Shown here: positions 12,255-34,488 of the stretch, piece after piece
Layout of the letters: each line of letters starts with the position of its first letter
How positions within the stretch are numbered: the first letter of the stretch is position 1
Source of the DNA: Patescibacteria group bacterium
Lineage (GTDB): Bacteria > Patescibacteriota > Patescibacteriia > Buchananbacterales > SURF-54
NCBI GenBank assembly: GCA_018818885.1
Contig: JAHIRB010000018.1
Location: forward strand, 5,041 to 69,040
DNA: 64,000 nucleotides
Direction of reading: 5' to 3'
The notes under the pieces: generated by a model
Told to the model about the DNA's origin: nothing
Seen by the model: only the letters and a program-made list of their open reading frames with translations
Databases searched by the model: none
Made by a program: the position numbers and the translations under genes

Positions 12255-12340
12255 GCGGGTATAGTGGTTTATTGTCACTCTCAGCCGCAGAGAGCGGGTA
12301 TAGTATAATGGCTTATTATGTCAGCCTTCCAAGCTGAAGA
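12255..12340 (+). pseudogene. two truncated 5' copies of tRNA-Gly (through the D-arm and through the anticodon arm)
   Basis: GCGGGTATAGTGGTTTATT... and GCGGGTATAGTATAATGGCTTATTATGTCAGCCTTCCAAGCTGAAG match the downstream tRNA-Gly up to the anticodon stem, then diverge. No T-arm. Confidence 0.45.
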
Positions 12341-12380
12341 TTAAACAATTAAAAAATAATATTTTCATCGTGTATTAAGA

Positions 12381-12453
12381 GCGGGTGTCGTATAGTGGTT
12401 TATTATGTCAGCCTTCCAAGCTGAAGAGGGCGGTTCGATTCCGCTCACCCGCT
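12381..12453 (+). tRNA. tRNA-Gly (anticodon TCC)
   Basis: Acceptor GCGGGTG/CACCCGC, anticodon arm TCAGC-CTTCCAA-GCTGA, T-arm GGCGG-TTCGATT-CCGCT. The flanks extend the acceptor helix to 14 bp (ATTAAGAGCGGGTG...CACCCGCTCTTAAT). Folded by hand. Confidence 0.75.
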
Positions 12454-12542
12454 CTTAATACGGGATTTTGGATTCCCGCCTGCCCCGTAAACGACTCTGA
12501 GTTTATCGAATAGAGTTTTACGGGGTTACCCGCTCCATGATA

Positions 12543-12568
12543 AAAGCCCCTTAAAACGGGGCTTTTGT
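12543..12568 (+). terminator. intrinsic terminator AAGCCCC-TTAAAAC-GGGGCTTTT
   Basis: 7-bp GC stem plus a T-run. Preceded by a longer hairpin CCCCGTAAA...TTTACGGGG at 12484-12526. Confidence 0.5.
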
Positions 12569-12595
12569 GATAGACTGGTAAAGCAAGTTAGAATT

Positions 12596-13321
12596 TTATT
12601 TAATATTATTCCAAAGATGCTGAATCATTGTTTTGTGCGTATCAGCAATATCTTTATCTTCAATAATCACACCCATTAGGTTATTTAAAGAAACCATAGT
12701 TGTTTTGTTATCAAATACTAAGATATCTGTAGCTATCTTAAAACTACGAGGTAAAAACTTAGTTTCACTTAGTCCCGTTCTGTATTTTTTTTGTGCATAT
12801 TCTCTGGCTTTTTTACTTTCCTGCATTAAATCATAAATAATACCTCCCTGACGATTCAAGATATTAAATAGATGTCTGTTTTCTTTCTCTGTAAAAACAT
12901 CAGAATAATTATCAAATGAAAACATAGACCAAATTTCTTTTGATCTAAAGACTTCCTCATACATTTTAGTAAGTCTATCTTTGCCTTCATAAAATCTTAC
13001 TTTAGGTTGTTTTGAGCTTTTTTGGTATATAGATTCTAAGTCTGGCAGAATATCCTTAATTTTTTCCTTTTTTTCTTCTAAATACTCAATTAGCTTACTG
13101 GGCTTTTCAGCTTTATAGTGTGTAATAGTCCCAGAGGGAATAGATATTAAAAGATTCTTTTTTAATAATTCTTCAATAATAAGATAAGTGGTGGGTCTTT
13201 TTAGACCCGCCCTTTTTGATAATTGGGTGATAGAGCATGTGCCTAAGGTTAAAGCAGCCAAATAAACGTTGGTTTCCTTATCGTTTAAGCCAAATTGTTG
13301 AAGGATAGTTTCTTTTTCCAT
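12596..13321 (-). CDS. TrmB-family transcriptional regulator (paralog 1)
   Basis: N-terminal winged HTH (NVYLAALTLGTCSITQLSKRAGLKRPTTYLIIEELLKKNLL) typical of TrmB. 241 aa. Confidence 0.7.
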   Translation of the reverse strand: MEKETILQQFGLNDKETNVYLAALTLGTCSITQLSKRAGLKRPTTYLIIEELLKKNLLISIPSGTITHYKAEKPSKLIEYLEEKKEKIKDILPDLESIYQKSSKQPKVRFYEGKDRLTKMYEEVFRSKEIWSMFSFDNYSDVFTEKENRHLFNILNRQGGIIYDLMQESKKAREYAQKKYRTGLSETKFLPRSFKIATDILVFDNKTTMVSLNNLMGVIIEDKDIADTHKTMIQHLWNNIK

Positions 13322-13472
13322 ATATTTAATCTTTATATCAGTTTAGCATAATTTTACTAAAATGTCAAGATTTCTGACGAATTTATAAAAAAAAATAGCA
13401 GGTTTTATAAATCTATTGTATGATGCAAAGTTAAAATTAACAGTACATTGAAAACTAAAAATGAGGTAGAAA

Positions 13473-13880
13473 ATGGGTGAGATAATTTTAACAGAAGGCG
13501 AAGAAAACTGTGTAAACAATATAGTTGGCGAGCTATTCTTTCATGTCCGAAAGGGTACGCTCACACACGGTATGGGAAAGGGGGTATTTCAGAGAAACTG
13601 TATTCATGAGATAGACTGCCACTGGTCAGATCGGGGGTGTATCGACATCAGTATGAGCGAATACGTCAGCGAGATTAACACCAACATGCTTTTAATCTTG
13701 TTTGCAGTTGTAAACAAGATTACTGCAAAACACTCAGTGCATGTTAGCCTTAGTTTTCCTTCTTGGGAAGAACTAAATGCTAACAGGTCACAACCTCCAC
13801 CACCAGATACTTTCTGGATGGAAGCGCTTGCCAGTCAGGGAGAGCCTGAACAGGTAACGGAGGAAGATTGGAAGGAATAA
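13473..13880 (+). CDS. Cys/His-rich small protein (SD-bearing small-ORF class), divergent from TrmB paralog 1
   Basis: 135 aa. GAGGT SD. Cys/His cluster (C13, H24, H32, C43, H45, C49, H50, C56). GC-richer than its surroundings. Own terminator at 13911-13948. Confidence 0.45.
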   Translation: MGEIILTEGEENCVNNIVGELFFHVRKGTLTHGMGKGVFQRNCIHEIDCHWSDRGCIDISMSEYVSEINTNMLLILFAVVNKITAKHSVHVSLSFPSWEELNANRSQPPPPDTFWMEALASQGEPEQVTEEDWKE

Positions 13881-13910
13881 AAAGAATATGTTTCTTTAAG
13901 GGAGGTGATA

Positions 13911-13948
13911 TAGAGACTCATTAAGTATTATAATGGGTCTCTTTTTTA
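13911..13948 (+). terminator. intrinsic terminator AGAGACTCATTAAGTATTATAATGGGTCTCT plus T7
   Basis: GAGAC/GTCTC stem followed by TTTTTTATTTT. Confidence 0.5.
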
Positions 13949-13979
13949 TTTTAGAATTTATGCACAAACTTAATCTTAA

Positions 13980-14007
13980 TTCATCACCACAGTTCTAATA
14001 TCATTGA
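13980..14007 (+). repeat. 28-bp direct repeat copy 1 (CAGTTCTAATATCATTGACTAACCCGCT)
   Basis: Copy 1 of four near-identical copies downstream of consecutive plus-strand ORFs. Ends in ACCCGCT, identical to the tRNA-Gly 3' acceptor core. Confidence 0.6.
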
Positions 14008-14089
14008 CTAACCCGCTTGGCGAAAAGCTGTCCCTACAGGACGGTTTTTTGCTTACACTGAGTTTGCCGAAGTGGTATACTGAAAGTGT

Positions 14090-14485
14090 ATGAAAAAAAT
14101 TTATTTCTTAATATTAATTTTCTTTTTCTTTAACATTATCAATAATGTAGAAGCACTTTTTGTAGATTTTATTGATATGCCGTACAGTCCCGAATATGAG
14201 CATTGTTTTAATAAAGAAGGATACCAGTGTATAGGGATTTATTATGCCAACGGACCTTGCAAAGGCACTGAAGATGTAGATAAGTATTGTATTAAAAAAT
14301 CTGATTCGAAAATTGTGAAATTGTATAAAGAAAAAAAGTTTATGCTAATAAAATTCAAAAATAGGGTTTTTAGTGATATAAAACGCAATCCCGCATCTTC
14401 AGCAGGAATAGCTATTACTATACTATTAGTTATATATTTAATTTTTAGTATCATAAAAAAAAAGTTAAATAAGATAAAAAAATAA
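14090..14485 (+). CDS. hypothetical secreted/membrane-anchored Cys-containing protein
   Basis: 131 aa with a signal peptide, a 6-Cys ectodomain and a C-terminal TM anchor plus K-rich tail. Confidence 0.45.
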   Translation: MKKIYFLILIFFFFNIINNVEALFVDFIDMPYSPEYEHCFNKEGYQCIGIYYANGPCKGTEDVDKYCIKKSDSKIVKLYKEKKFMLIKFKNRVFSDIKRNPASSAGIAITILLVIYLIFSIIKKKLNKIKK

Positions 14486-14516
14486 TCCTTCAAAATTTAT
14501 ATAGTATTTGATATGA

Positions 14517-14544
14517 CAGTTCTAACATCATTGACTAACCCGCT
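14517..14544 (+). repeat. 28-bp direct repeat copy 2 (CAGTTCTAACATCATTGACTAACCCGCT)
   Basis: 27/28 identical to copy 1. Followed by the terminator CACTCCC-CTAAA-GGGAGTG-TTTTT. Confidence 0.6.
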
Positions 14545-14592
14545 CCAGCATTAGCACTCCCCTAAAGGGAGTGTTTTTGATATAATTTTAAT

Positions 14593-15978
14593 ATGAATTT
14601 AATATTACTAAGTTTGGCTGTAATCGTCATTCTTTATTTCACAATTAACCCTTCAAAGAAATGGAAAGTGGCTTTTAATATGGCCACTGTTTCCATTGCA
14701 GCTTTAATTGTTTTATTATTGTTGAAAGTTATTGATATCGAAACAATCATTTCTGGCATCATCGGCACTAATGGAATTGAGCCTTGGAAGGTTTTAGTTA
14801 TATTTTTTAGCGTTGCTTACGTAAGCGTGAGTACAGATGTAACTGGTATTTTTGATTATATAGCATATAGGTTAGTAAGATTAGCAAACGGTGACGGTAT
14901 TAAGCTTTTTTTGTTTTTTTATTGCTTTGCAGGATTCTTAAGTATATTTACTTCTAATGATATTGTTATTTTAACTTTGACTCCGATCATTTTTTATTTA
15001 GGCAAACATGCAAAGATAAATATTATTCCATTATTGTTTGCGGAGTTTTTTGCTGCCAACACCCTTAGTATGCTGTTGTATATTGATAATCCTACAAACA
15101 TTATAATGGTTAATGCGCTAGGGATCGGGTTTGTAGAATATTTGTCAGTCATGTGGCTTCCAACCTTGGTTGCAGCAATTGTTAACTATATATTGTTATA
15201 TTTAATATTTAGAAAACAAATAACTAAAAAATATAATTTAAATGAGAATTCTGAGTTTACAGTAAGAAATAAATTAGACGCCACAATAAGCAGTACATTG
15301 ATGATCGCAATGTTTATTTTTTTAGTATTATCAGACAGTATGGAATTTTCTATTTGGAAAATAACATCTATTTTTGCTATGTTGTTTATAATAGAAGATA
15401 TTTTATTTAGTTTATATTATCAAAGAAAATCACGACAATTATCAGCACCACAACTTGATAAACGAGAAGTCGTGTTAGGTATACCGAAAGAAAAAAATGA
15501 ATTTTGGTTAGCAATAAAGCGTGTACCTTGGAAAATATTACCATTTGTAACAGTTTTTTTTATTTTGGTTTATCATTTAAGTCACATAGGTGTTATTGAA
15601 AGTATAAGTGAGTGGTTATCTGCTGGATCAAATTCTCTTCTGTCGAGTATTGGCTTAAATGGTGTGGTAGCTTTCATCAGTGCGAACATAATTAACAATC
15701 AGCCAATGGCAATTTTGTATTCTTATGTATTTACAAATGCAAAATTAACATTACAAGGGATTGAATTGCGGGGGGCAGTTTATGCAGTTATAATTGCTAG
15801 TAATTTAGCTGCAAATTTTACAATAATAGGTGCTTTGGCAGGCCTAATGTGGAAGAAAATATTAAAAGACAAAGGAGTTCAAATATCATATTTTGATTTT
15901 ATAAAAAAAGGTATTGTAATAACGCCGTTGGTTTTTGTAGCAACATTGGCTACACTCTATGTAATACTTCAGTTCTAA
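14593..15978 (+). CDS. ArsB/NhaD-superfamily anion permease (arsenite efflux pump ArsB-like)
   Basis: 461 aa polytopic protein. CFAGFLSIFTSNDIVILTLTPII...AANTLSMLLYIDNPTNIIMVN aligns to ArsB SNDATALLMTPI...AANVGS...PIGHPTNLVMV. Confidence 0.75.
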   Translation: MNLILLSLAVIVILYFTINPSKKWKVAFNMATVSIAALIVLLLLKVIDIETIISGIIGTNGIEPWKVLVIFFSVAYVSVSTDVTGIFDYIAYRLVRLANGDGIKLFLFFYCFAGFLSIFTSNDIVILTLTPIIFYLGKHAKINIIPLLFAEFFAANTLSMLLYIDNPTNIIMVNALGIGFVEYLSVMWLPTLVAAIVNYILLYLIFRKQITKKYNLNENSEFTVRNKLDATISSTLMIAMFIFLVLSDSMEFSIWKITSIFAMLFIIEDILFSLYYQRKSRQLSAPQLDKREVVLGIPKEKNEFWLAIKRVPWKILPFVTVFFILVYHLSHIGVIESISEWLSAGSNSLLSSIGLNGVVAFISANIINNQPMAILYSYVFTNAKLTLQGIELRGAVYAVIIASNLAANFTIIGALAGLMWKKILKDKGVQISYFDFIKKGIVITPLVFVATLATLYVILQF

Positions 15979-15997
15979 TATCATTGACTAACTCGCT
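15970..15997 (+). repeat. 28-bp direct repeat copy 3 (CAGTTCTAATATCATTGACTAACTCGCT)
   Basis: Overlaps the last codons and stop of the permease gene. 27/28 identical to copy 1. Confidence 0.6.
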
Positions 15998-16200
15998 GTT
16001 TGTATTTATTTTCACCTTCCCCTCCTACACTTCTCGTTTCACTCGAAGTTTTGGAGGGCAGGCAAGTTTACCTGCCGAATCCGCCAGAGGCGGAGAAGGC
16101 AGGCTGAAAATATGGGTTCTGCGCCAGGGGCGCACCAGCCTGGCTGGAATTCCTCTTCACACGCTTTTGACTAGATCATCGCCGAAAGGGTGGTTTTTTA
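15998..16200 (+). other. GC-rich multi-hairpin element (candidate structured RNA or decayed GC-rich repeat) ending in a T-run
   Basis: Consecutive short hairpins CCCTCC..GGAGGG, GGCAGG..CCTGCC, CCGCCAGAGGCGG, TGCGCCAGGGGCGCA and CCAGCCTGGCTGG, then GGGTGGTTTTTT. The ORF 15984-16208 called here is probably spurious. Confidence 0.35.
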
Positions 16201-16240
16201 TTACTTAATAATGAAAAGTTGGAACTATTATAATAATCTA

Positions 16241-16269
16241 TTGACAAACTATTAACCGTTGTATATACT
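16241..16269 (+). promoter_or_regulatory. consensus sigma70 promoter TTGACA-17-TATACT for the dinJ-yafQ operon
   Basis: TTGACA at 16241-16246, 17-nt spacer, TATACT at 16264-16269, 27 nt upstream of the dinJ ATG. Confidence 0.55.
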
Positions 16270-16295
16270 TTAGTTATATAATTAATACAAAGAAT

Positions 16296-16571
16296 ATGAA
16301 AACAATTATCAACATTAAATCCGACAGAGATATAAAAGAGAAAGCTCAAAAAATTGCTAAAAATTTAGGGTTGCCCCTAAGTACTTTGATCAATGCTTAT
16401 TTACGCCAGCTTATTAGAAATGAAGAGATTCATTTCTCTACTGCCCCTATGATGACGAAAGAACTTGAAGAAACAATAACAATTGCCATGCAAGACTTAA
16501 AGGCCAAGAAAAATGTTTCTCCCACTTTTTCTAGCAAAAAAGTCATGAATGATTATCTTGATTCTTTATGA
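16296..16571 (+). CDS. dinJ: type II antitoxin, RelB/DinJ family
   Basis: 91-aa RHH protein (LGLPLSTLINAYLRQLI). 4-bp ATGA overlap with the downstream toxin. Confidence 0.75.
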   Translation: MKTIINIKSDRDIKEKAQKIAKNLGLPLSTLINAYLRQLIRNEEIHFSTAPMMTKELEETITIAMQDLKAKKNVSPTFSSKKVMNDYLDSL

Positions 16572-16828
16572 AAATAAAGTATCATAAGATATTCACTAAT
16601 AAATTTGGCAAGCTTAAGATAAAAGTACGAGAGAAAGCAAAAGAAAGATTAATAATTTTTTTTGACGATCCATTTAATGAAAGGTTAAATAATCATGCTC
16701 TGCAAGGTAAGTATATAGGATTTCGTAGTATAAATATTAGTGGCGATCTTAGGGCAATATATAAAATGATTAATAATGACACAGTTTTTTTTATTGACTT
16801 GGATACACATAGCAACCTTTATTCTTGA
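16568..16828 (+). CDS. yafQ: type II toxin, YafQ/RelE family mRNA interferase
   Basis: 86 aa. LNNHALQGKYIGFRSINISGDLRAIYKMIN...THSNLY matches the YafQ/RelE core. Confidence 0.75.
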   Translation: MKIKYHKIFTNKFGKLKIKVREKAKERLIIFFDDPFNERLNNHALQGKYIGFRSINISGDLRAIYKMINNDTVFFIDLDTHSNLYS

Positions 16829-16831
16829 TTT

Positions 16832-16859
16832 CAGTTTTAATATCATTGTCTAATTTGCT
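16832..16859 (+). repeat. 28-bp direct repeat copy 4, degenerate (CAGTTTTAATATCATTGTCTAATTTGCT)
   Basis: 22/28 identical to copy 1, immediately after the yafQ stop. Last copy before the PurD-like gene. Confidence 0.5.
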
Positions 16860-16995
16860 TTCTGCGCCTGCATCAAAGATTAGATATTTGACTATTAACA
16901 AACGAATCGCCTACTTAGGTGTTTTTTTGTTTAGTCTGGTATATGCAAACTTTTAAAAACTGCTATAATTATATTGTTTTTACTTATCAACACTT

Positions 16996-18321: not shown

Positions 18322-19226
18322 TAATAAAAAAAATAACTGACATTAAAGATTGCCAGCGTATCTGGCAACTTTTTTCACCCAAAGATACCCTTTGGGATTT
18401 ATGGGAATTAGTTGAATCAATATATAATCCAAAGATTCATTCTCCCTTATTTTTAGTTGGTGTAAGAGGTGGTAAAGAAACTGGACTTTTACCTTTGTGG
18501 TTTGATAAATCTCAAAAAGTTTATTATTCTTTTGGCGGATCAATTTGTGAATTCAGGGATTTTTGGTTTGGGCCACAAGATTTTCCATTTTATTTTGAAA
18601 AAATCCCAACTCCAATATTGATAAATGATATTGATGCAGTTTCGGTTGAACAAATCTTAAAAGTGAATCCAGATTATCGTAAATATTTTTTTGAAATTGA
18701 TAATAAATACATTCTTAATTTTAAAGAAATAAATTACAGTTTAGAAGGATTTTATAAACGCTTTACACCAAAACATAGAAAAAATTTAAAGTATGATATA
18801 AAGAAACTTGACAGTTTAAAATATGTTATAAAATGGGAAAAATTTAACCACTTTGATTTAATGATACAATTTAATAAAAACCGTTTTGGTGTGGAATCAA
18901 ATTTTGAAGATATCAATAATATAGATGAACTCAAAAAATTACTTCAGTTTTTTTCAGATAAAAAATGGCTACATACTTTATCCGTTAACATAGATAATAA
19001 AGTACAGGCTATTGAATATGCTGCTTTTTATAATCATACCTATTATGTCATTAATGGTGGTTTTAATCATAAGTATAAAAATTTTGGTAAATTAGTGTTG
19101 ATTGAGCATATTAAAAATGCAATGGAGTTAAAAGCTGATATAGTTGATTTTATGGTTGGAGATAGTGGCTGGAAAGAATTATGGAATTTAGATAAATTAC
19201 CGTGTTATTCCCTGAATAAAGACTAA
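18318..19226 (+). CDS. hypothetical protein, possibly FemAB/GNAT (Acetyltransf_6)-like, in an operon with the PurD-like gene
   Basis: 302 aa with a 4-bp ATGA overlap with the upstream gene. Only weak resemblance to the peptidyl-transferase/GNAT fold; family not securely recognised. Confidence 0.3.
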   Translation: MIIKKITDIKDCQRIWQLFSPKDTLWDLWELVESIYNPKIHSPLFLVGVRGGKETGLLPLWFDKSQKVYYSFGGSICEFRDFWFGPQDFPFYFEKIPTPILINDIDAVSVEQILKVNPDYRKYFFEIDNKYILNFKEINYSLEGFYKRFTPKHRKNLKYDIKKLDSLKYVIKWEKFNHFDLMIQFNKNRFGVESNFEDINNIDELKKLLQFFSDKKWLHTLSVNIDNKVQAIEYAAFYNHTYYVINGGFNHKYKNFGKLVLIEHIKNAMELKADIVDFMVGDSGWKELWNLDKLPCYSLNKD

Positions 19227-21832: not shown

Positions 21833-21850
21833 AGGCCTGGATGGGATTTT
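21833..21850 (-). pseudogene. duplicated 3'-end fragment of tRNA-Cys (AGGCCTGGATGGGATTTT) about 90 bp downstream of the gene
   Basis: 16/18 identical to the tRNA-Cys 3' region AGGCCTGGACGGGATTCG in the same orientation. GC-rich palindromes lie between the copies. Confidence 0.35.
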
Positions 21851-21938
21851 CCGCCTGCGGCGGATGCGCCCGCTTCGACTCCGAAGAGAGGCGAGCCTCT
21901 GGCGCAGAACCTTAAACCTAGAACATTCAAAACCAATA

Positions 21939-22012
21939 AGGCCTGGACGGGATTCGAACCCGTGAATAGAGGTTTTGCAGACCCCCGCCTTAGACCACTT
22001 GGCTACCAGGCC
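21939..22012 (-). tRNA. tRNA-Cys (anticodon GCA)
   Basis: rc reads GGCCTGG-TA-GCCAAGTGGTCTAAGGC-GGGGT-CTGCAAA-ACCTC-...ACGGG-TTCGAAT-CCCGT-CCAGGCC-T. Flanked by a perfect 14-bp inverted repeat CATTCAAAACCAAT/ATTGGTTTTGAATG. Folded by hand. Confidence 0.75.
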
Positions 22013-22036
22013 ATATTGGTTTTGAATGATTATTAT

Positions 22037-22136
22037 GCGAATAGAGGTTTTGCAGATTTACCCCGCAAAATGAGTCACGTTACGTATAACTGAATTTCTG
22101 CGGGGCTTCCGCCTTAGACCACTTGGCTACGTGACC
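22037..22136 (-). pseudogene. tRNA-Cys-like 5' half with an altered acceptor arm, a 52-nt hairpin insertion and no T-arm
   Basis: rc GGTCACG-TA-GCCAAGTGGTCTAAGGC, then hairpin CCCCGCA...TGCGGGG, then TCTGCAAAACCTCTATTCGC. D-arm and anticodon loop are identical to tRNA-Cys. Confidence 0.35.
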
Positions 22137-22349: not shown

Positions 22350-22679
22350 ATGATGGAATCAAGAGAAGGAGAATCGCAAGGCAATCTAGAGAATATCCTT
22401 AGCGAAATGGATAGAGCATCAGAAGCAATGAAGGGTTGGACTGACGATACATTTGATGAAAAGCGTAAAGCAGCTATTGAAATTTTAGGAATAGGACGTG
22501 CTTTAGATGAGTCTGGCCCTTTACAGGAACTTCAACAATTGATAGAACAAGGGTCTTTAAGTGATTCTGATCTTGAGAGAGTAAAGGAAAGTATGAAAGG
22601 TGGTTTGTCAACAGCAGATCCTGAGTTTCAGAGAAAGCTACGGGAAATAGGTATCGCAATAAGAGCTCAAGAAAAATAA
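22350..22679 (+). CDS. hypothetical acidic protein
   Basis: 109-aa ORF followed by a terminator. No SD, no family recognised. Confidence 0.4.
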   Translation: MMESREGESQGNLENILSEMDRASEAMKGWTDDTFDEKRKAAIEILGIGRALDESGPLQELQQLIEQGSLSDSDLERVKESMKGGLSTADPEFQRKLREIGIAIRAQEK

Positions 22680-28158: not shown

Positions 28159-29688
28159 ATGGATACAATTAATGTTTGGCCTTTCGCGCTAGCGGTGGGC
28201 ATTATAACCGGTTTGATCACTGGTTTTTATTTACGTAAAGTAATTGTAGTAAAAAGAAAAGATTCAATTGAGCGCAAAATTCAAAACATGATTCAAGAAG
28301 CCAAGGCTAAGCAAAAAGAAATTTTGCTTGAGGCTAACGACAAGGCTTTAAAGTTTATAGAAGATGCTAAAGGAGAAATTCGTGCCAGGCAGCAAGATTT
28401 ACAAAGTTCACAAAGAAGATTCGAACAAAGAGAAGGTCTATTTGACCAAAAACTTATTGAGCTTGAATCTAAAAAGCAAGAACTTTTAGATAAAGCAGAA
28501 AAAATAGAGGACATCAAAAAACAAGTAATAAAAATTAAAGAAGAGCAAACTACTAAATTAGAAAAAATTGCAGCTTTAAGCAAAGCAGAAGCTAAGGAAC
28601 TTTTACTTGAAAATGTTGAAAAAGAATCAAAAGAAGATATTTTGCAGCGTATTAAGAAATTAACCCAACAAGGTTCCGAAGAACTTGAACGTAAAGCCAA
28701 AGAAATGCTTTCTACGGTAATTGAGCGTGTTGCTATTTCTCATGCAACAGAAAGTACAGCTACTGTAGTTGATCTACCATCAGACGAAATGAAGGGACGT
28801 ATCATTGGACGTGAAGGAAGAAACATCAAATCATTCGAACAACAAACAGGAGTTGAAATTATCGTAGACGATACCCCCCAAGCCATTACAATTTCTGGCT
28901 TTTCTCCAATTAGACGTCATGTAGCAAAAAAAGCATTAGAGAAATTAATACAAGATGGAAGAATTCACCCAGCAAGAATAGAAGAAACAATAGCAGAAGC
29001 TAAACAAGAAATTGCACTGGCAATCAAAAAAGCAGGTGAAGACGCACTCTACGATGTTGGTGTTACTGGTATTGATCCTAAATTAGTCCAAATTTTAGGT
29101 CGCTTGATGTATCGTACAAGTTACGGACAAAATATCTTGCAGCATTCAATTGAAATTGCGCACCTTTCAACTTTACTGGCAGAACTACTTGGAGCAGATG
29201 TTACATTAGCAAAAAAGGGCGGGCTTTTTCATGACATTGGTAAAGCTGTAGATCACGAAGTTCAAGGCGGTCACCCAGAAATTGGCTATGATATTTTAAA
29301 GAAATTTGATATGCCAGAAGAAGTAGCCTATTGCGCCAAAGGACATCACGAAGATCATCCAAAAACTCTAGAAGCAGTTATAGTTAAGGTAGCAGATGCA
29401 ATTTCTGGTGCACGTCCAGGAGCACGAAAAGATACTTACGAAAACTATTTGCAGCGTTTGGAAGAACTAGAAAAAGTTGCAACTTCGTTTGATGGTGTAG
29501 AAAAATCATATGCTATTCAAGCAGGGCGTGAAATTAGAGTATTTGTAGTGCCAGAGGAAATTGATGATTTAGAAGCAGTAAAGTTAGCACAAAACATTGC
29601 TAAAAAAATTGAAGCAGAATTAAAATATCCAGGTGAAATAAAAGTTAATGTAATACGCGAAAAACGTATCGTGGAGTACGCGAGGTAA
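28159..29688 (+). CDS. rny: ribonuclease Y
   Basis: N-terminal TM, coiled coil, KH domain (GRIIGREGRNIKSFE) and HD domain (HSIEIAHL...FHDIGK). 509 aa. Confidence 0.9.
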   Translation: MDTINVWPFALAVGIITGLITGFYLRKVIVVKRKDSIERKIQNMIQEAKAKQKEILLEANDKALKFIEDAKGEIRARQQDLQSSQRRFEQREGLFDQKLIELESKKQELLDKAEKIEDIKKQVIKIKEEQTTKLEKIAALSKAEAKELLLENVEKESKEDILQRIKKLTQQGSEELERKAKEMLSTVIERVAISHATESTATVVDLPSDEMKGRIIGREGRNIKSFEQQTGVEIIVDDTPQAITISGFSPIRRHVAKKALEKLIQDGRIHPARIEETIAEAKQEIALAIKKAGEDALYDVGVTGIDPKLVQILGRLMYRTSYGQNILQHSIEIAHLSTLLAELLGADVTLAKKGGLFHDIGKAVDHEVQGGHPEIGYDILKKFDMPEEVAYCAKGHHEDHPKTLEAVIVKVADAISGARPGARKDTYENYLQRLEELEKVATSFDGVEKSYAIQAGREIRVFVVPEEIDDLEAVKLAQNIAKKIEAELKYPGEIKVNVIREKRIVEYAR

Positions 29689-29770
29689 ATTACGAATTAC
29701 CAATCAATACGAATATACGAATAGATAATACGTAATTTGTATATTAGTTTAAATTCGTAATTGGTATTAA
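29689..29770. repeat. palindromic intergenic repeat, copy B (AATTACGAATTACCAATCAATACGAATATACGAAT ... ATTTGTATATT...AATTCGTAATTGGTAT)
   Basis: Same arm sequences as copies A and C. Lies between rny and the YmdB-like gene. Confidence 0.6.
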
Positions 29771-29792
29771 GAATTATGTAATTAATTAAAAT

Positions 29793-30590
29793 ATGAGAAT
29801 TTTATTCTTTGGTGATGTGGTAGGAAAAATTGGTAGGCGTGGGATGAAAGAAGTTGCGTCACAACTAAAAGAAGAATTAAAAGCAGATTTTGTAATTGCG
29901 AATGTAGAAAACTTAGCGCATGGTACGGGAGTTACAAAAAAGACATTAAAGCAACTAGAAGATGCTGGAGTAGATTTTTTTACCTCTGGAAATCACATTT
30001 GGAAAAAAGAAGAAGCAAAAGAAATACTGGTAGAACAAAAAGTAAAATTAATTAGGCCGGATAATTATATCGAAAAACTTCCAGGAACAGGTGCAACAAT
30101 TATTGAAATAAAAAAGAAAAAAGTGTTAATGGTCAATTTAGTAGGACAGGCGTTTATGCACGAGGAGTTTAACAGTCCGTTTGTTGCAATAGATAATATC
30201 TTAGAAAAATATCAAAAAGACAAACCAGACATTATCATTATAGACTTTCATGCAGAAGCAACTTCGGAAAAAAATGCTTTAGGTTGGCATGTAGATGGTA
30301 GAGTATCAGCAATTGTTGGCACTCACACCCATGTTCCCACAGCAGATGCTAAGATATTAACTAATGGCACAGGATATATAACTGATGTAGGTATGGTTGG
30401 AGCAAAAAATTCAATCATAGGTGGCAACAAAGATGAAATTTTAGAGAGTTTTTTAAGCGGGGATCCGTTTAGCCATAACATCGCAGAAACCGGTGTGTGC
30501 CAAGTCAACGCTGTGCTTATAACAATAGATGCCAAGACATCAAAAACTAAAAAGATTGAAAGAGTAGACAGAGAAGTAGAAATTTGCTAA
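29793..30590 (+). CDS. ymdB: YmdB-like 2',3'-cyclic-nucleotide phosphodiesterase / metallophosphoesterase (TIGR00282)
   Basis: MRILFFGDVVGKIGR...ANVENLAHGTG and a conserved rny-ymdB neighbourhood. Confidence 0.8.
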   Translation: MRILFFGDVVGKIGRRGMKEVASQLKEELKADFVIANVENLAHGTGVTKKTLKQLEDAGVDFFTSGNHIWKKEEAKEILVEQKVKLIRPDNYIEKLPGTGATIIEIKKKKVLMVNLVGQAFMHEEFNSPFVAIDNILEKYQKDKPDIIIIDFHAEATSEKNALGWHVDGRVSAIVGTHTHVPTADAKILTNGTGYITDVGMVGAKNSIIGGNKDEILESFLSGDPFSHNIAETGVCQVNAVLITIDAKTSKTKKIERVDREVEIC

Positions 30591-30643
30591 AATTACACTA
30601 TCTTAAATTAATCATAAAAACCCTTTGAAGGGAGGTGGTAAAC

Positions 30644-30985
30644 ATGAACAAAGACGAGTTAAGCAATTCTTTAGCTGATAAAATTGGTATAACCAAAAAA
30701 CAGGCTTTAGATGCTCTAGATTACTTAACTGAAACAATTACAAGCACCATTAAAGATGGTGGCGATGTTACCTTGACTGGCTTTGGTACTTTTTCAGCAC
30801 GCCAAAGAAAGGGTCGTATTGGAGTAAATCCTCGTAATATTTCAGAAAAAATTGAAATTCCGTCAGTTTTAGTAGCAAAATTCAAAGCTGGAAAAAATTT
30901 AAAGGAAGCTTTGAAATCAAGTGGTTCTAGTAGTTCAGAAAGCGTATCCGAAAGTACCGAAGAGGCTTCCCCAACAGAAGAGTAA
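30644..30985 (+). CDS. hup: DNA-binding protein HU with a Ser/Glu-rich C-terminal extension
   Basis: MNKDELSNSLADKIGITKKQA...GFGTFSARQRKGRIGVNPRN HU/IHF signature. Strong GGAGG SD 8 nt upstream, so start set at 30644 rather than 30635. Confidence 0.85.
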   Translation: MNKDELSNSLADKIGITKKQALDALDYLTETITSTIKDGGDVTLTGFGTFSARQRKGRIGVNPRNISEKIEIPSVLVAKFKAGKNLKEALKSSGSSSSESVSESTEEASPTEE

Positions 30986-31023
30986 TCACATTGATATACA
31001 TCCCTTGGACCTTGGGATAAACA

Positions 31024-31055
31024 AAAACCCCATACATCTTAAAGAGGGGTTTTTG
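31024..31055 (+). terminator. intrinsic terminator ACCCCATACATCTTAAAGAGGGGT plus T-run
   Basis: CCCC(T)/(A)GGGG stem followed by TTTTTG. Confidence 0.45.
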
Positions 31056-31122
31056 TATTGGTTGAAATTAAATTAATATTTTGTTACAGTAGTAAAGTAG
31101 TTATATAAATAAAACATAATTT

Positions 31123-31863
31123 ATGGAAGCAAAAAAAATAAAACAAATTATCAAAGATAAATATGGCAAAATTGCTAATTCGAATGCCGGTTGTGGCTGC
31201 CAATGCAGATGTAATGATAGCGAAGATATTTCGAAAGAGATTGGATATAGCCAAGAAGAAATTAACAATGTGCCAGAAGCAAACCTAGGCCTTGGTTGCG
31301 GTAATCCCATAGCACATAGTCGAATAAAAGAAGGTGATGTAGTGCTAGATTTGGGAAGTGGAGCAGGATTTGATTCTTTTTTGGCAGCAAAAAAAGTAGG
31401 TCCAGCCGGAAAAGTCATCGGAGTCGATATGACACAAGAAATGCTAAATAAAGCTAAAGCGAACGCCAAAAAGTATAATTATGATAACGTAGAGTTTAGG
31501 CTTGGTGATATCGAAGATCTGTCAGTTGAAGATAATATGATAGATGTTATCATTACTAACTGCGTAATTAATTTAGCACCAGACAAACTAAAAGTTTTCA
31601 AAGAAGCTTACAGAGTATTAAAAAAAGGTGGCAGAATGTATATTTCTGATATTGTGTTACTTAAGCAATTAACCCAAGAACAACGAGATAACGAAGAGCT
31701 GGTAACGGGTTGTATTGGGGGTGCAATGCTAAAAGATGAATATATAGAAACAATTAAAAAGTCAGGCTTTGAAGTCAACGTATTAAACGAAGATAAGGAT
31801 ATTAGCAAAAAACAATATCAAGGTTTACCGCTTGTGAGTTTATCCATAGAAGCAATCAAGTAA
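31123..31863 (+). CDS. arsM: arsenite S-adenosylmethionine methyltransferase
   Basis: Three conserved Cys (CGCQC...C) and a class-I SAM motif. LGCGNP...VLDLGSGAGFD...GVDMT...NCVINLAPDK matches the ArsM consensus. Confidence 0.85.
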   Translation: MEAKKIKQIIKDKYGKIANSNAGCGCQCRCNDSEDISKEIGYSQEEINNVPEANLGLGCGNPIAHSRIKEGDVVLDLGSGAGFDSFLAAKKVGPAGKVIGVDMTQEMLNKAKANAKKYNYDNVEFRLGDIEDLSVEDNMIDVIITNCVINLAPDKLKVFKEAYRVLKKGGRMYISDIVLLKQLTQEQRDNEELVTGCIGGAMLKDEYIETIKKSGFEVNVLNEDKDISKKQYQGLPLVSLSIEAIK

Positions 31864-31875
31864 AGCAAGATAACA

Positions 31876-31907
31876 AAAAAACTTCTCAGTAAATGAGAGG
31901 TTTTTTG
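31876..31907 (+). terminator. intrinsic terminator CTCTCA-GTAAA-TGAGAG plus T6
   Basis: A-run, 6-bp stem, then GGTTTTTTG. Confidence 0.5.
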
Positions 31908-31984
31908 AATGCCCTTATTTTTGTAAAATCTACGGGAAGAAAGACTTTTTATTAGTATAGCAATTATTGAATATAATGAAAATT

Positions 31985-32752
31985 TTATTTATAAGGCTTT
32001 GATAATTTCCAAATCGAATCAAATTGTGTTTTCATCATTTCAGCCAGTTCAGCACTTTCTACTAGAAAACCAAAATTTTCTTTACTTGAAGAAATAAATC
32101 GTACACTATTACCATAAATTGCATAGCCGAGCGAGAAATCTACTTCGGCTGGAGCAATTTTTGCATCTCTTTTGGATTCGGTTCCTGTTTTAGAATAGGG
32201 ATATTTTTTTATTGAAGAAATTTCGTTTTGCGGCCAAATTACTTTTATATTAATGTTTCGTTTTACTCTTTCTTTATGAAAAGATGTTAAGAATTCACCT
32301 GAGAGTAGTTTATTTAATTTTATAACAGGCCAGTATGCATAGACAGTTATATCTCTAAACAATAACATATCTTTCATCATCTGCTGTAATTCTTTCTTCC
32401 CCTCATAAATTTGCATTCTTGGTTTAGAAGATGTTTTTTGAGATAAATATTCTGATTGTAATATGTCCAAAGCAATTTTGGCTTTTTTTAATTCTTTTTC
32501 TTTTTCTTCAATTAGTAAATGTAGTTTTTCTGGTGGACAAGCAGCAAACATCTTTACACCACCTTTTTGCGTTTCAAAAACTATACCAATTTCGATTAGC
32601 CTTTCTAACAAATCATAAACTGAAGTTCTGCTAATTTCAGATTGTTTAGCTAGTTGAGTAGCAGACATTTGCCCGCCGTAAAAAAGTTTTTGGTATAAAT
32701 CAAGTTCAATTTTTCTTAAGTTGAATATTGAGAGTAGAGTTGCTATTTTCAT
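31985..32752 (-). CDS. TrmB-family transcriptional regulator (paralog 2)
   Basis: N-terminal wHTH LDLYQKLFYGGQMSATQLAKQSEISRTSVYDLLERLIEIGIV. 255 aa. Convergent with arsM and divergent from the small Cys-rich ORFs. Confidence 0.7.
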   Translation of the reverse strand: MKIATLLSIFNLRKIELDLYQKLFYGGQMSATQLAKQSEISRTSVYDLLERLIEIGIVFETQKGGVKMFAACPPEKLHLLIEEKEKELKKAKIALDILQSEYLSQKTSSKPRMQIYEGKKELQQMMKDMLLFRDITVYAYWPVIKLNKLLSGEFLTSFHKERVKRNINIKVIWPQNEISSIKKYPYSKTGTESKRDAKIAPAEVDFSLGYAIYGNSVRFISSSKENFGFLVESAELAEMMKTQFDSIWKLSKPYK

Positions 32753-32763
32753 ATATTTTAATG

Positions 32764-32786
32764 ATGTCGTGGAATTGTCACGACAT
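32764..32786. promoter_or_regulatory. 8-bp-arm palindrome ATGTCGTG-N7-CACGACAT in the divergent promoter region (candidate operator)
   Basis: Perfect dyad between TrmB paralog 2 and ORF 32870. Confidence 0.3.
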
Positions 32787-32788
32787 AG

Positions 32789-32817
32789 TTTACAATATCA
32801 CAATTAAACATTAAAGT
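32789..32817 (+). promoter_or_regulatory. candidate promoter TTTACA-17-TAAAGT
   Basis: TTTACA at 32789-32794, TAAAGT at 32812-32817. Confidence 0.3.
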
Positions 32818-32869
32818 CAAGAGTTGAACGTTGACAATTGGTTGAGTGGTAAAGGGAGGTATGTATATT

Positions 32870-33130
32870 ATGTACAAAACAATAGGGGCTTCATTATTAG
32901 CATTTCAAATGGGTATGGTGTTTAATGTCGAACTGTTTCATAAAAAGACAGGAGTGTGGCTTGATAGTCTTGAACAAATCGATGAATACCGATCCGGACT
33001 GAAAGTTGAGGAAAGATGTTACTTCGACGTATTCGTAATCCAGAAGAGAGCTCAAATTGATGTGTTAGGACTTGAAGAAGACGAAGTGAAAAAAGTTTTT
33101 CAAGTCATAAAGGCTTGTTTTTCAAAATAA
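32870..33130 (+). CDS. small protein of the SD-bearing small-ORF class
   Basis: GGGAGG SD at 32854-32859. The ATG at 32870 has the best spacing; the ORF track's longer 32846 start was rejected. About 86 aa. Confidence 0.4.
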   Translation: MYKTIGASLLAFQMGMVFNVELFHKKTGVWLDSLEQIDEYRSGLKVEERCYFDVFVIQKRAQIDVLGLEEDEVKKVFQVIKACFSK

Positions 33131-33181
33131 CTTCTCAAATAATTGTTTTAGGACGAAGTGAATGAAAATGGAGATGATAAA

Positions 33182-33610
33182 ATGCCAAAGAAGGAGTCAA
33201 AGTTTAAGGACTGGGGCGTACAACCACATCAGGGTATGAGACACAATTGGGACGTAACTAGTTGCCCACATTGTAATCATGATTTTAATCAATATAGGAT
33301 GTTGTATTGTAGATTCATAGTAGGATTCACTACGAAAGAAGAATATAGAAGGCCTACATACGATGGGACAAAAATTGTAGGATTTTATGCAGAGGGAGCT
33401 GTTATTTTAGAATGTCCAAAATGTTTTGAGCATTCATGGATTCACAGTTGTGGCACTACCAGGCAGTTATTTGATGCGACAGAAGATGACGATAATTTCC
33501 TTTTAGTCCCTGGAGCAAAGGAGGCTTTTTTGAGAAGTGTAAAGAAAAAGTCGAAAAAGAAACCGACCAAAAAAAAGCTAAAGAAAAAATTGGTTAAGAA
33601 GAAGAATTAA
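33182..33610 (+). CDS. zinc-ribbon small protein with a Lys-rich tail (SD-bearing small-ORF class)
   Basis: CPHCNH...CPKC four-Cys ribbon and a C-terminal KKKSKKKPTKKKLKKKLVKKK. GGAGA SD 7 nt before ATG 33182; a GTG start at 33158 is also possible. Confidence 0.45.
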   Translation: MPKKESKFKDWGVQPHQGMRHNWDVTSCPHCNHDFNQYRMLYCRFIVGFTTKEEYRRPTYDGTKIVGFYAEGAVILECPKCFEHSWIHSCGTTRQLFDATEDDDNFLLVPGAKEAFLRSVKKKSKKKPTKKKLKKKLVKKKN

Positions 33611-33619
33611 ATCTATATA

Positions 33620-33651
33620 CCGCCTGAAAAGTAATATCAGGCGGTTTTTTA
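33620..33651 (+). terminator. intrinsic terminator CCGCCTG-AAAAGTAATAT-CAGGCGG plus T6
   Basis: Perfect 7-bp GC stem and TTTTTT. Confidence 0.55.
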
Positions 33652-33662
33652 TATCCAAAAAA

Positions 33663-33687
33663 CTGTCCAATTAGGACAGCTCTTTTT
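33663..33687 (+). terminator. second tandem terminator CTGTCC-AATTA-GGACAG plus CTCTTTTT
   Basis: 6-bp stem followed by a T-run. Confidence 0.45.
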
Positions 33688-33693
33688 ATCTAA

Positions 33694-33835
33694 GATGCGC
33701 GCAGAGGGACCCCCTTCGATTTACTCAGGGTAAGCGAACCCCCGCCTGTCCTCCGAATCCACCTCCGGCGGAGTAGGAGGAACCGTTTGCTTAACCCCGT
33801 ACAATGCTCGCGTGAGCTCGCATATACGGGGCAAG
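33694..33835. other. GC-rich hairpin cluster adjacent to tRNA-Lys
   Basis: Hairpins CTCCGGCGGAG, TCCTCC..GGAGGA and CCCCGTA...TACGGGG. Shares short GC modules with the other GC islands in the window. Confidence 0.3.
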
Positions 33836-33858
33836 GAGTCAACAATTTTTCATTTCTT

Positions 33859-33932
33859 TGCGCCCAGAGGGATTTGAACCCCCGACCATTTGCTTAAGAG
33901 GCAACTGCTCTACCAGCCTGAGCTATGGGCGC
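33859..33932 (-). tRNA. tRNA-Lys (anticodon CTT)
   Basis: rc GCGCCCA-TA-GCTCAGGCTGGTAGAGC-A-GTTGC-CTCTTAA-GCAAA-TGGTC-GGGGG-TTCAAAT-CCCTC-TGGGCGC-A. Folded by hand. Confidence 0.75.
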
Positions 33933-34009
33933 ATAATTAATGTGATTAATAGTTATGTAGATATTTTGGGTTGAGTGTACAAATGATAAACGATGAAAAA
34001 TAAAATAAT

Positions 34010-34038
34010 GCGGGTCTACCAGGCTGAGCTATGGGCGC
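34010..34038 (-). pseudogene. truncated 5' fragment of tRNA-Lys (acceptor plus D-arm only)
   Basis: rc GCGCCCATAGCTCAGCCTGGTAGACCCGC, about 90% identical to the 5' 27 nt of tRNA-Lys and lying 5'-upstream of it. Confidence 0.4.
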
Positions 34039-34064
34039 ATATTTAAGAGGACTATTATTATAAG

Positions 34065-34137
34065 CGCGCCCGGTAGGAGTCGAACCTACAACCCCTTGGT
34101 CCGAAGCCAAGTGCTCTATCCATTAAGCTACGGGCGC
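34065..34137 (-). tRNA. tRNA-Arg (anticodon TCG)
   Basis: rc GCGCCCG-TA-GCTTAATGGATAGAGC-A-CTTGG-CTTCGGA-CCAAG-GGGTT-GTAGG-TTCGACT-CCTAC-CGGGCGC-G. Folded by hand. Confidence 0.75.
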
Positions 34138-34143
34138 ATAAAT

Positions 34144-34410
34144 TTATTTTTTTAATGAATTTTTTATTCTTACTTTTAAGAATTCTCTTTGTTGACCTTT
34201 ATTTTTTATCTCTAACTCACGTTTCCTAGCATCTGTTTTAGAAATATATGCTTCATAGTAAACAAGTGATAATGGCCTTCTGCTTTTAGTTGATTTCACT
34301 TTGCCAGTATTATGATCGACTACTCGTTTTTTAAGATCTCCACTTATACCATAATATAGTTCATTATCCAACTTACTTTTTAAGACATAGAAATAATATA
34401 TATTAAACAT
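34144..34410 (-). CDS. GIY-YIG nuclease-domain protein (YhbQ/UPF0213-like)
   Basis: 88 aa. YYFYVLKSKLDNELYYGISGDLKKRVVDHNTGK..STKSRRPLSLVYYEAY matches the GIY-YIG consensus. Confidence 0.75.
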   Translation of the reverse strand: MFNIYYFYVLKSKLDNELYYGISGDLKKRVVDHNTGKVKSTKSRRPLSLVYYEAYISKTDARKRELEIKNKGQQREFLKVRIKNSLKK

Positions 34411-34454
34411 TTATTCATTTGGTCCGCCCGCCTGCGGCGGGTCCGCCGTAGGCG

Positions 34455-34488
34455 GAAAGCCAAGCGCTCTATCCAGTTGTCCCGACGC
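34455..34488 (-). pseudogene. degenerate tRNA-Arg-like D-arm-region fragment upstream of the GIY-YIG gene
   Basis: GAAAGCCAAGCGCTCTATCCAGTTGTCCCGACGC versus tRNA-Arg GAAGCCAAGTGCTCTATCCATTAAGCTACGGGCGC. Embedded in GC-rich hairpins (CCGCCTGCGGCGG). Confidence 0.3.

Follow-up and report, generated by a model that had tools for sequence, protein, structure and literature searches.

Partial copies of four tRNA genes in a Patescibacteria chromosome segment and a small GIY-YIG nuclease gene among them: probable scars of selfish cassettes

We examined a 64-kb window (64,000 nucleotides; contig JAHIRB010000018.1, positions 5,041 to 69,040), a piece of Patescibacteria (candidate phyla radiation, CPR) chromosome with a GC content of ~34%. 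ARAGORN and Rfam agree that it contains exactly four transfer RNA (tRNA) genes, for Gly, Cys, Lys and Arg. An earlier note, made from the sequence alone, had claimed that each has a partial copy of its own 5' part just upstream. This proved right for all four, and the space between the Arg copy and tRNA-Arg holds an intact gene for a small GIY-YIG nuclease. The partial copies, the nuclease gene and the GC-rich hairpins found with them are the subject of this report.

Partial copies around the four tRNA genes

Each tRNA was used as a blastn-short query against the whole window, and non-self matches with E <0.01 were kept. Such matches lay solely directly upstream of the same tRNA, for all four tRNAs; a weaker and unrelated match placed positions 14-26 of tRNA-Arg at 22406-22418 (E 0.05). 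Pseudo-copies were also scored by gapped local alignment in which long insertions are cheap, with 300 shuffles providing a z score. By this test the four upstream 5' copies reached z 11.6-19.4, and pseudo-copies of the 3' part were detected downstream of tRNA-Lys (z 9.4), tRNA-Cys (z 5.4) and, weakly, tRNA-Gly (z 3.1, p ~0.01); none was detected downstream of tRNA-Arg. Copy and gene are 25-330 bp apart across the four loci. At the Gly locus, three independent assemblies made from different samples agree at every base, two of their contigs ending within the repeat, which rules out an assembly artefact. The partial-copy pattern is confirmed as neither chance nor artefact. Its components are as follows.

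12255-12277, plus strand: older 5' pseudo-copy of tRNA-Gly, positions 1-6 and 10-24, then GTCA, then a weak hairpin (12259-12273 = positions 10-24, E 0.003)
12291-12340, plus strand: younger 5' pseudo-copy of tRNA-Gly, three leader bases and positions 1-47, through the anticodon arm into the variable loop
12341-12380, plus strand: spacer from the Gly pseudo-copy to the tRNA, with TTTTCATCGT at 12362-12371 and the 5' arm of the extended acceptor helix at 12367-12380
12381-12454, plus strand: intact tRNA-Gly (TCC) (ARAGORN, Rfam)
12454-12535, plus strand: 3' arm of the extended Gly helix (to 12466), then the weak 3' pseudo-copy, the weakest part of the set
21833-21906, minus strand: 3' pseudo-copy of tRNA-Cys with GC-rich hairpins within
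21924-22028, minus strand: intact tRNA-Cys (GCA) at 22012-21939, inside a 23-nt inverted repeat (ARAGORN, Rfam)
22039-22136, minus strand: 5' pseudo-copy of tRNA-Cys (z 19.4)
33696-33831, minus strand: hairpin 33831-33795, then the 3' pseudo-copy of tRNA-Lys, with the native terminator after it
33858-34014, minus strand: 81-nt spacer (TTTTCATCGT at 33999-33990) and intact tRNA-Lys (CTT) at 33933-33858 (ARAGORN, Rfam)
34015-34039, minus strand: 5' pseudo-copy of tRNA-Lys, positions 1-25, 24/25 identical (E 9e-7; repeat family D9; z 11.6)
34064-34137, minus strand: intact tRNA-Arg (TCG) (ARAGORN, Rfam)
34144-34410, minus strand: intact 88-residue GIY-YIG nuclease gene (PF01541, E 1e-14, residues 5-74)
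34419-34546, minus strand: 5' pseudo-copy of tRNA-Arg, three blocks covering positions 1-42 (z 11.7)

Two 5' fragments precede tRNA-Gly. The younger, 12294-12340, corresponds to positions 1-47 with 91% identity by blastn-short (E 9e-13); it falls in repeat family D7 (92%), has z 19.1 and scores 26 bits with the Rfam tRNA model, just under the threshold of 29. The Gly 3' pseudo-copy consists of 12468-12476 (positions 54-62) and 12524-12535 (positions 63-74), divided by a hairpin at 12483-12525, and the native terminator follows it at 12545-12563. The 5' copy at tRNA-Cys comprises 22130-22109 (positions 7-28, E 2e-7) and 22056-22039 (positions 32-49, E 5e-5), parted by a 52-nt insert that holds a hairpin at 22105-22061. 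Its acceptor strand, GGTCACG at 22136-22130, differs from that of tRNA-Cys. In the Cys 3' pseudo-copy, positions 41-49 lie at 21891-21883 and positions 59-74 at 21848-21833; one of its hairpins, at 21850-21864, reads TCCGCCGCAGGCGGA on the minus strand and TCCGCCTGCGGCGGA on the plus strand.

The Lys 5' copy begins 24 nt after tRNA-Arg, and the Lys 3' copy preserves positions 41-49 (33790-33782), 50-58 (33744-33736) and 62-75 (33709-33696) with hairpin inserts between them. The Arg copy runs from positions 1-13 (34546-34534) through two hairpins (34533-34480) to positions 14-34 (34477-34457), and on through a 30-nt double hairpin within the anticodon (34456-34427) to positions 35-42 (34426-34419). 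Its blastn-short match covers positions 16-34 at 34475-34457 (E 0.003).

The alignments of the four 5' copies to the adjacent tRNAs are significant by E value and by shuffling. The two Gly fragments, one of them through the anticodon arm, the Cys half with its different acceptor arm and 52-nt hairpin insertion, and the Lys fragment of acceptor strand plus D arm are as the earlier note described them. The Arg fragment it listed is equally real but was drawn too short: the copy extends from the D-arm region to the whole of positions 1-42 (34546-34419), and the nuclease gene lies between it and tRNA-Arg. Beyond a 3'-end duplicate at tRNA-Cys, the downstream 3' pseudo-copies had likewise escaped that note. 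Breakpoints are concentrated in three places, namely the D-arm end (~22-28), the end of the anticodon arm or variable loop (~41-49) and the T loop (~55-65); the first two had been anticipated broadly correctly.

Terminators of native look are placed beyond the 3' pseudo-copies, and a region that by its position alone is assigned as promoter precedes the Arg 5' copy. The intact gene is consequently read as nested between two parts of an older copy. This is the case for Lys and Cys, and probably for Gly. Differences between pseudo-copy and tRNA alleles in the window amount to 1-4 bases and are ambiguous, the acceptor arm of Cys being the sole clear difference.

The inverted repeat around tRNA-Cys and the extended acceptor helix of tRNA-Gly, both proposed beforehand, are also real. 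The Cys repeat has 23-nt arms that are 96% complementary and lengthens the acceptor stem by 14 bp; the Gly repeat has 21-nt arms (90%) and likewise extends the acceptor stem. The two repeats are unrelated in sequence and show no evident target duplication.

Partial tRNA copies are a known by-product of integration by phages and islands, for which tRNA genes are classic sites (PMC9897764), and the earlier note had called them scars of integrase-mediated recombination. Integration of this kind keeps the target tRNA functional and leaves a partial tRNA copy as a direct repeat (PMC9897764). It involves a tyrosine recombinase and kb-scale islands with the 3' part duplicated, the repeats lying 9-121 kb apart (PMC9897764). 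No recombinase or integrase gene was found beside any of the four loci when Pfam was run on the flanking genes. These gave matches to CorA, DUF192, TrmB, alpha/beta hydrolase, IF-2, PilT-like ATPase and GIY-YIG, with two open reading frames (ORFs) left without a match. The units here measure 0.1-0.4 kb and their repeats are 25-330 bp apart, with no kb-scale island; the upstream copy is the 5' part, 5' or both parts are duplicated, and the copies are nested and interrupted by hairpins. An origin as attachment-site scars is accordingly extremely improbable. Among the proteins encoded in the window as a whole are transketolase, glucose-6-phosphate isomerase, IF-2, RNase Y, GyrA, FtsH, ribosomal protein S1 and PilB/PilT-type ATPases.

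Several other readings were rejected. A group I or other tRNA intron is ruled out: at gathering scores Rfam reports just the four intact tRNAs and no intron family in the window, the interrupted copies are each missing the other half, and whole genes exist as well. Also considered and set aside were split or permuted tRNA genes and fragments derived from clustered regularly interspaced short palindromic repeats (CRISPR).

The nuclease gene and its homologues in other genomes

The nuclease gene fills the gap between the Arg pseudo-copy and tRNA-Arg exactly, starting 8 nt after the copy and ending 6 nt before the tRNA. A six-frame profile search of the whole window returned this single intact gene as the sole copy and no remnants of it in the ORF-less spacers; an 'IKQLKK*' tail in the Gly spacer was dismissed as a remnant, being too short and AT-rich. 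Of the four loci, Arg is still occupied; the nests at Gly, Cys and Lys have no nuclease gene.

The protein is the catalytic domain alone. The domain occupies residues 5-74 of 88, there is no separate DNA-binding domain, and homologues are 81-98 residues long. All residues invariant in a 26-sequence family alignment are present. The closest solved structures are the UPF0213 proteins BH0048 (1zg2, E 3.4e-13) and EF2693 (1ywl, E 1.1e-9), which rank ahead of I-TevI (1mk0) and eukaryotic SLX1 and share with the window protein a minimal single domain. UPF0213 belongs to the bacterial Slx1-like minimal GIY-YIG proteins, a family for which a role in DNA repair or RNA metabolism was predicted (PMC1564403); we met no link of the UPF0213 family to mobility or tRNA genes in the literature. 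Homologues of ~85 residues number in the hundreds, and the source names available are nearly all Patescibacteria.

Eighty loci encoding a homologue were surveyed in species-representative genomes, the expected tRNA adjacency being taken from tRNA density in the outer flanks of the same loci. In 25/80 loci the start of a co-oriented tRNA falls -30 to +40 nt from the end of the nuclease match, against 0.27 expected. Counting either side, 36/80 loci have an adjacent co-oriented tRNA and two have an opposite-strand neighbour. Eleven isotypes are represented among the downstream tRNAs. In 14 loci a 100% identical 5' part of the downstream tRNA (13-58 nt) lies 7-110 nt upstream of the ORF, and further 5' copies, diverged or hairpin-interrupted, are visible by eye beyond these. 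The closest homologues of the window protein (67-73% identity) are arranged likewise, at Lys-CTT, Glu-TTC and Ser-GCT and in gene contexts that are unrelated; some of them stand in tandem arrays. The recurrent mechanism that the earlier note had offered, with small elements replacing part of the tRNA and GIY-YIG as a candidate, is thus essentially upheld, the layout being found again at many tRNA types across dozens of Patescibacteria genomes.

Tandem arrays of a unit made of a dead 5' tRNA copy, a double hairpin and the nuclease ORF occur at L038, L011, L164, L168 and L079. L167 and L168 encode an identical protein and differ in unit number, L168 having an extra pseudo-copy and hairpin after the ORF where L167 has an intact tRNA. 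In a neighbour-joining tree of the 85-residue protein, drawn without support values, two tRNA-nested groups stand apart from a third, inverted-repeat-flanked group, and sub-clades in the tRNA-nested groups track tRNA identity. At L065, L068 and L057 (Cys) and L083 (Trp), the acceptor strand of the upstream half is the complement of that of the downstream half (for example GGTCGCG with CGCGACC, and GGGAGTG with CACTCCC), and both differ from the acceptor stem of the intact tRNA, which lies with the ORF between the halves. Each half carries the same hairpin. Complementary halves of this sort would be expected from entry of an ORF-plus-tRNA unit into an older gene, and would not easily arise by simple tandem duplication.

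The order PilT-like ATPase, tRNA-Arg, tRNA-Lys is kept in metagenome relatives whose ATPase is 62-70% identical. Four of these loci are clean (L090, L114, L092, L095). The gap from Arg to Lys is 0-3 nt in L090 and L088, both of which lack the Lys 5' copy, and 130 nt in the window. L093 has a pseudo-Arg 5' copy with two hairpins and no ORF, and L091 and L111 carry 3' fragments. Flanking pseudo-copies with z of at least 5 accompany 4/29 tRNAs in these relatives, compared with 4/4 in the window. Syntenic loci therefore range from clean, through fragment-bearing without the nuclease gene, to occupied. The comparison suggested in the earlier note, for presence/absence polymorphism and for elements between fragment and gene, yielded both: the polymorphism just described and the GIY-YIG gene at Arg. 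For the Gly locus, neighbouring DUF192 homologues outside the same species are at most 63% identical, and two such loci had no conserved synteny or nearby tRNA-Gly.

L089, among the closest relatives by ATPase identity, has a nested Lys gene, with z 12.7 and 16.3 for its two sides. Its pseudo-Arg starts identically to that of the window (GCACCTGTAGCTT-CCCGACG...), with the double hairpin at the same place and no ORF, and it looks like a deletion derivative of the occupied state. Pseudo-Arg start and hairpin site are identical at 20/20 and 11/11 bases between the two, in surroundings where the neighbouring PilT-like ATPases share only 70% identity and no alignment of the promoter region is possible. 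Being better conserved than nearby non-coding DNA, the pseudo-Arg module either belongs to a cassette that was shared or transferred, or experiences selection.

These data bear on local duplication without a mobile element, by which slippage or unequal crossing-over would leave decaying partial tandem copies and the nuclease gene would be retained beside highly transcribed tRNAs. Distances from copy to gene are short at three window loci (25-130 bp), those loci have no ORF remnant, and many upstream copies in relatives are 100% identical, possibly through recent duplication or gene conversion. An intact gene between 5' and 3' halves would nevertheless need several specific extra steps, and it is seen at Lys, Cys, weakly at Gly, and at L065, L068, L083 and L089. 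An acceptor helix shared by the halves and unlike the inner tRNA points to the entry of a different allele. Duplication leaves the stereotyped hairpin and the roughly 90-fold excess of tRNA adjacency unexplained, and conservation between the window and L089 is higher for the pseudo-Arg module than for nearby non-coding DNA. We judge local duplication alone to be distinctly improbable.

Hairpin modules and inverted-repeat forms

The dead copies are almost always broken by short GC-rich hairpins. Commonest is a 30-nt unit of two 15-nt hairpins, exemplified in the window by TCCGCC-TAC-GGCGGA followed by CCCGCC-GCA-GGCGGG. Its insertion is clean and falls in the anticodon (34/35 or 35/36) or the T loop (55/56 or 56/57), mostly just 5' of C, after which the tRNA sequence continues for a few bases up to the ORF. 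In L080 the same double hairpin interrupts two dead copies, one at its anticodon loop and the other at its T loop. Thirty-one distinct versions were collected; their stems differ while the geometry is constant, and both sides change in 11/12 pairs, although the set was gathered by a hairpin finder, which in part guarantees its 100% pairing. Elements of a second group carry a single hairpin of the CCCCGC...GCGGGG type. Three window hairpins of one type (12483-12525, 22061-22105 and 33795-33831), built as GCCCCG(T/C)A, a loop of ~17-27 nt and T(A/G)CGGGGT, each lie inside or beside a tRNA pseudo-copy and resemble these single-hairpin modules. The hairpins could serve as a recognition structure, shield dead copies from being cut, or function as RNA elements.

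A dense cluster of GC-rich hairpins, including TCCGCCAGAGGCGGA, also follows the ArsB-like gene at 16020-16144 (plus strand). It contains a double hairpin, TGCGCCAGGGGCGCA then CCAGCCTGGCTGG, flanked by GGGTTC and AATTCC. Rfam gives no tRNA match at 16020-16144; the arrangement looks like the T loop of a fifth, otherwise vanished tRNA copy.

The hairpin modules might themselves be the mobile agents. MITE-like palindromes (MITE, miniature inverted-repeat transposable element) would then enter tRNA loops and a duplicate tRNA would take over, with the GIY-YIG protein acting in trans or riding as a passenger that uses strong tRNA promoters. The clean loop insertions mostly just 5' of C fit this, as do the shared double hairpin of the two dead copies in L080, the hairpin clusters away from intact tRNAs (16020-16144 in the window, and L088) and the frequency of ORF-less nests. 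By itself, however, such a process gives no reason for an intact tRNA between the halves of an older gene, and it accounts neither for the ORF within ~10 nt of a tRNA in 25/80 loci nor for protein clades that track element architecture. It is a real alternative, overlapping the cassette explanation more than opposing it, but on balance an unlikely one.

Alternatively, the partial copies could be functional RNA, either leaders for tRNA processing or expression or decoys for tRNA-binding factors. The constant architecture of the double hairpin with its varying stems, and the conservation of the pseudo-Arg start and hairpins between the window and L089, are in keeping with a function. So is folding of the Gly transcript in silico: with the extended helix the true cloverleaf is kept, and without it the 5' strand of the pseudo-copy pairs with the true 3' end in 99/100 shuffles. 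The control for this experiment is weak, as the native stem is predicted in just 7/100 shuffles when arm and pseudo-copy are both shuffled. Presence is moreover polymorphic, with several syntenic relatives clean, and the extent of the fragments differs from locus to locus, many being visibly in decay. Selection for an RNA function is a highly improbable origin of the copies. The extended helices at tRNA-Gly and tRNA-Cys may still keep the true tRNA folded in a precursor that holds a competing copy.

Inverted-repeat forms of the element are frequent in relatives. Repeats such as CCCCCACACC / GGTGTGGGGG lie on both sides of about 35/80 ORFs, several of which also have 4-nt direct repeats; motifs of the CCCCCACACC / GGTGTGGGGG type are absent from the window. 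Inverted-repeat GIY-YIG elements lie at the 3' or 5' end of a tRNA in L010, L053, L055 (about 2380-2800), L076 and L033. Their outer repeat bases match the tRNA end, and the direct repeat is 4 nt, or 7-11 nt of acceptor strand. In L010, L053 and L055, where the element is at the 3' end, the tRNA stays whole because the outer repeat bases equal its 3' end, and the displaced end is placed beyond the element. In L028 (about 2340-2900), a GIY-YIG element with a CCCCCACACC end apparently lies inside a 23S ribosomal RNA (rRNA) gene, as judged by eye, which agrees with published CPR rRNA insertion sequences (PMC11270868). L071, L048, L061 and L063 contain ORF-less palindromes with ends as in the inverted-repeat GIY-YIG elements (e.g. 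CCCCCACACCAACTTA...TAAGTTGGTGTGGGGG), and these look like non-autonomous derivatives. In L085 (about 1850-1960), tRNA-Arg lies within a perfect 12-bp inverted repeat (CCGCACCTTTCC / GGAAAGGTGCGG) that resembles both the ends of inverted-repeat elements and the extended acceptor helices of Gly and Cys in the window.

A cassette model and its relation to known systems

Architecture, recurrence, tRNA association, polymorphism and former genes split around a different allele are matters of observation. With moderate confidence we interpret the partial tRNA copies as scars, or at Arg an occupied site, of small selfish GIY-YIG cassettes that are common in Patescibacteria. Such a cassette would comprise a gene for a ~85-residue Slx1/UPF0213-like GIY-YIG protein, an abutting co-oriented tRNA (or its 5' part) and GC-rich hairpins, typically the 30-nt double hairpin. 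It would settle in a resident tRNA gene of the same identity, at cloverleaf loops or arm boundaries, with a working tRNA copy retained after entry. The displaced 5' part would be left upstream with the native promoter, and the displaced 3' part often downstream with the native terminator. Repeated rounds would generate nested copies such as the two 5' fragments at Gly, with hairpin modules coming to occupy loops of the dead copies. Later deletion of the nuclease ORF would give nests like Gly, Cys and Lys.

The nuclease is proposed to cut the tRNA gene, perhaps reading folded structure. Recognition by structure rather than sequence is suggested by the clustering of breakpoints, the Slx1-like protein and the many target isotypes. 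The break would be repaired by copying of the cassette, for which the dead 5' copy (left) and the intact tRNA (right) could serve as homology arms usable in any genome, amounting to intron-less homing. Copying of this kind would regenerate the 5' duplication at each event and would thereby explain loci with a 5' copy only.

Several points weigh against the cassette interpretation. The activity of the nuclease, its target site and its movement are proposed from comparison. Three of the four window loci have no ORF or detectable ORF remnant, and are tied to the cassette through their shared architecture and the L089 intermediate. Allele comparisons in the window are ambiguous, the Arg copy being nearer to a relative's tRNA (41/43 positions) than to its own (39/43). 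An intact tRNA identical to the dead copy stays a potential target, so the model does not account for self-immunity of an occupied locus. Hairpin covariation owes something to selection by the hairpin finder, and the protein grouping comes from a neighbour-joining tree, without support values, of a short protein of 85 residues. A hairpin-bearing repeat on both sides is present in just 6-9/36 tRNA-adjacent loci; because the rest have a 5' copy only, nests may arise by more than one route.

A bolder proposal, possible but doubtful, is that the cassettes represent a new class of minimal selfish element of ~0.35 kb, consisting of the 85-residue Slx1-like GIY-YIG gene and the 30-nt double hairpin. 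Such an element would recognise tRNA genes by folded (cloverleaf/cruciform) DNA structure, cut loops or arm junctions and nest a replacement tRNA, using the tRNA sequence as portable homology arms. The host's only working copy would then lie inside the element, making it hard to lose, and repeated rounds would produce Russian-doll tRNA genes across Patescibacteria. Inverted-repeat forms would do likewise at tRNA 3' ends and rRNA genes.

Phage T4 SegB offers the nearest functional parallel in the form of a free-standing GIY-YIG homing endonuclease encoded in the T4 tRNA gene cluster. SegB has a 27-bp site that includes a conserved motif of tRNA genes coding for the T loop, and it spreads intron-free, through break repair, together with adjacent tRNA genes (PMC2330249). 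The abstract of that study mentions no partial tRNA duplication, nesting or hairpin module (PMC2330249). The Arg locus shares with SegB a GIY-YIG domain with its conserved residues, a gene placed amid tRNA genes at its presumed tRNA target, and presence/absence among relatives. Homing endonucleases of the SegB kind carry a separate DNA-binding region; the window protein, in contrast, is an 85-88-residue catalytic domain of Slx1/UPF0213 type on a bacterial chromosome.

Free-standing GIY-YIG and LAGLIDADG genes stand beside partial duplications of host genes such as cob in fungal mitochondria (PMC6279837). There as here, a selfish nuclease gene adjoins an essential gene that is kept whole with a displaced partial copy alongside. 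A nuclease gene beside a partial duplication is reportedly also found at atp6 of Allomyces, and GC-rich double-hairpin elements occur in the same fungal mitochondrial genomes. The fungal hosts are protein-coding genes of organelles with the 3' end duplicated, whereas here the host is a tRNA gene, the 5' part mainly or both parts are displaced, and the hairpin is inside the dead copy.

In the same bacterial group, non-intron insertions of CPR rRNA genes encode GIY-YIG proteins; these insertions are found mostly at stem-loop tops or bases (PMC11270868). The window ORF likewise occupies a non-intron insertion within a structured-RNA gene, the disrupted tRNA-Arg locus. The rRNA study mentions tRNA 0 times, judges the GIY-YIG insertions to be sparse and outside homing, and reports no target duplication or replacement copy (PMC11270868).

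No description of tRNA-nested GIY-YIG cassettes in bacteria was found in full-text searches with thin coverage of subscription journals, and the family is widespread and apparently undescribed. We class the cassette as a free-standing, homing-type nuclease element made unusual by its domain-only Slx1-like nuclease, its nesting of tRNA in tRNA and its stereotyped double hairpin. If this is true, a very small autonomous element would be added to known mobile DNA, and a large Patescibacteria family annotated 'GIY-YIG nuclease family protein' would gain a function. It would also account for partial tRNA genes and hairpin-rich spacers that confuse tRNA annotation and break assemblies, and would reveal a route by which a parasite occupies single-copy essential RNA genes of tiny genomes while the host survives. 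A structure-guided minimal nuclease aimed at tRNA genes would then be of interest to enzymologists and tool builders.

Other repeats were observed in the window. The 10-mer TTTTCATCGT has just two sites, 12362-12371 (plus strand) at Gly and 33999-33990 (minus strand) at Lys, both in spacers between pseudo-copy and tRNA and both in tRNA orientation; related loci showed no enrichment, and it is a minor lead. A 145-bp MITE-like unit just downstream of gyrA (38450-38594) has perfect 15-bp terminal inverted repeats (GACCTCCCCCTGTCC / GGACAGGGGGAGGTC) and C-rich hairpins inside. Family D1, a motif of ~27 nt (ATTACGAAT-N-AATACGAATATACGAAT), has four intergenic copies at 8460-8505, 29677-29722, 42801-42846 and 55463-55508. 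Family D2, CAGTTCTAATATCATTGACTAAC(C/T)CGCT, has four copies around the ArsB-like cluster (13972-14018, 14499-14545, 15952-15998 and 16814-16860), which look like operator or regulatory sites.

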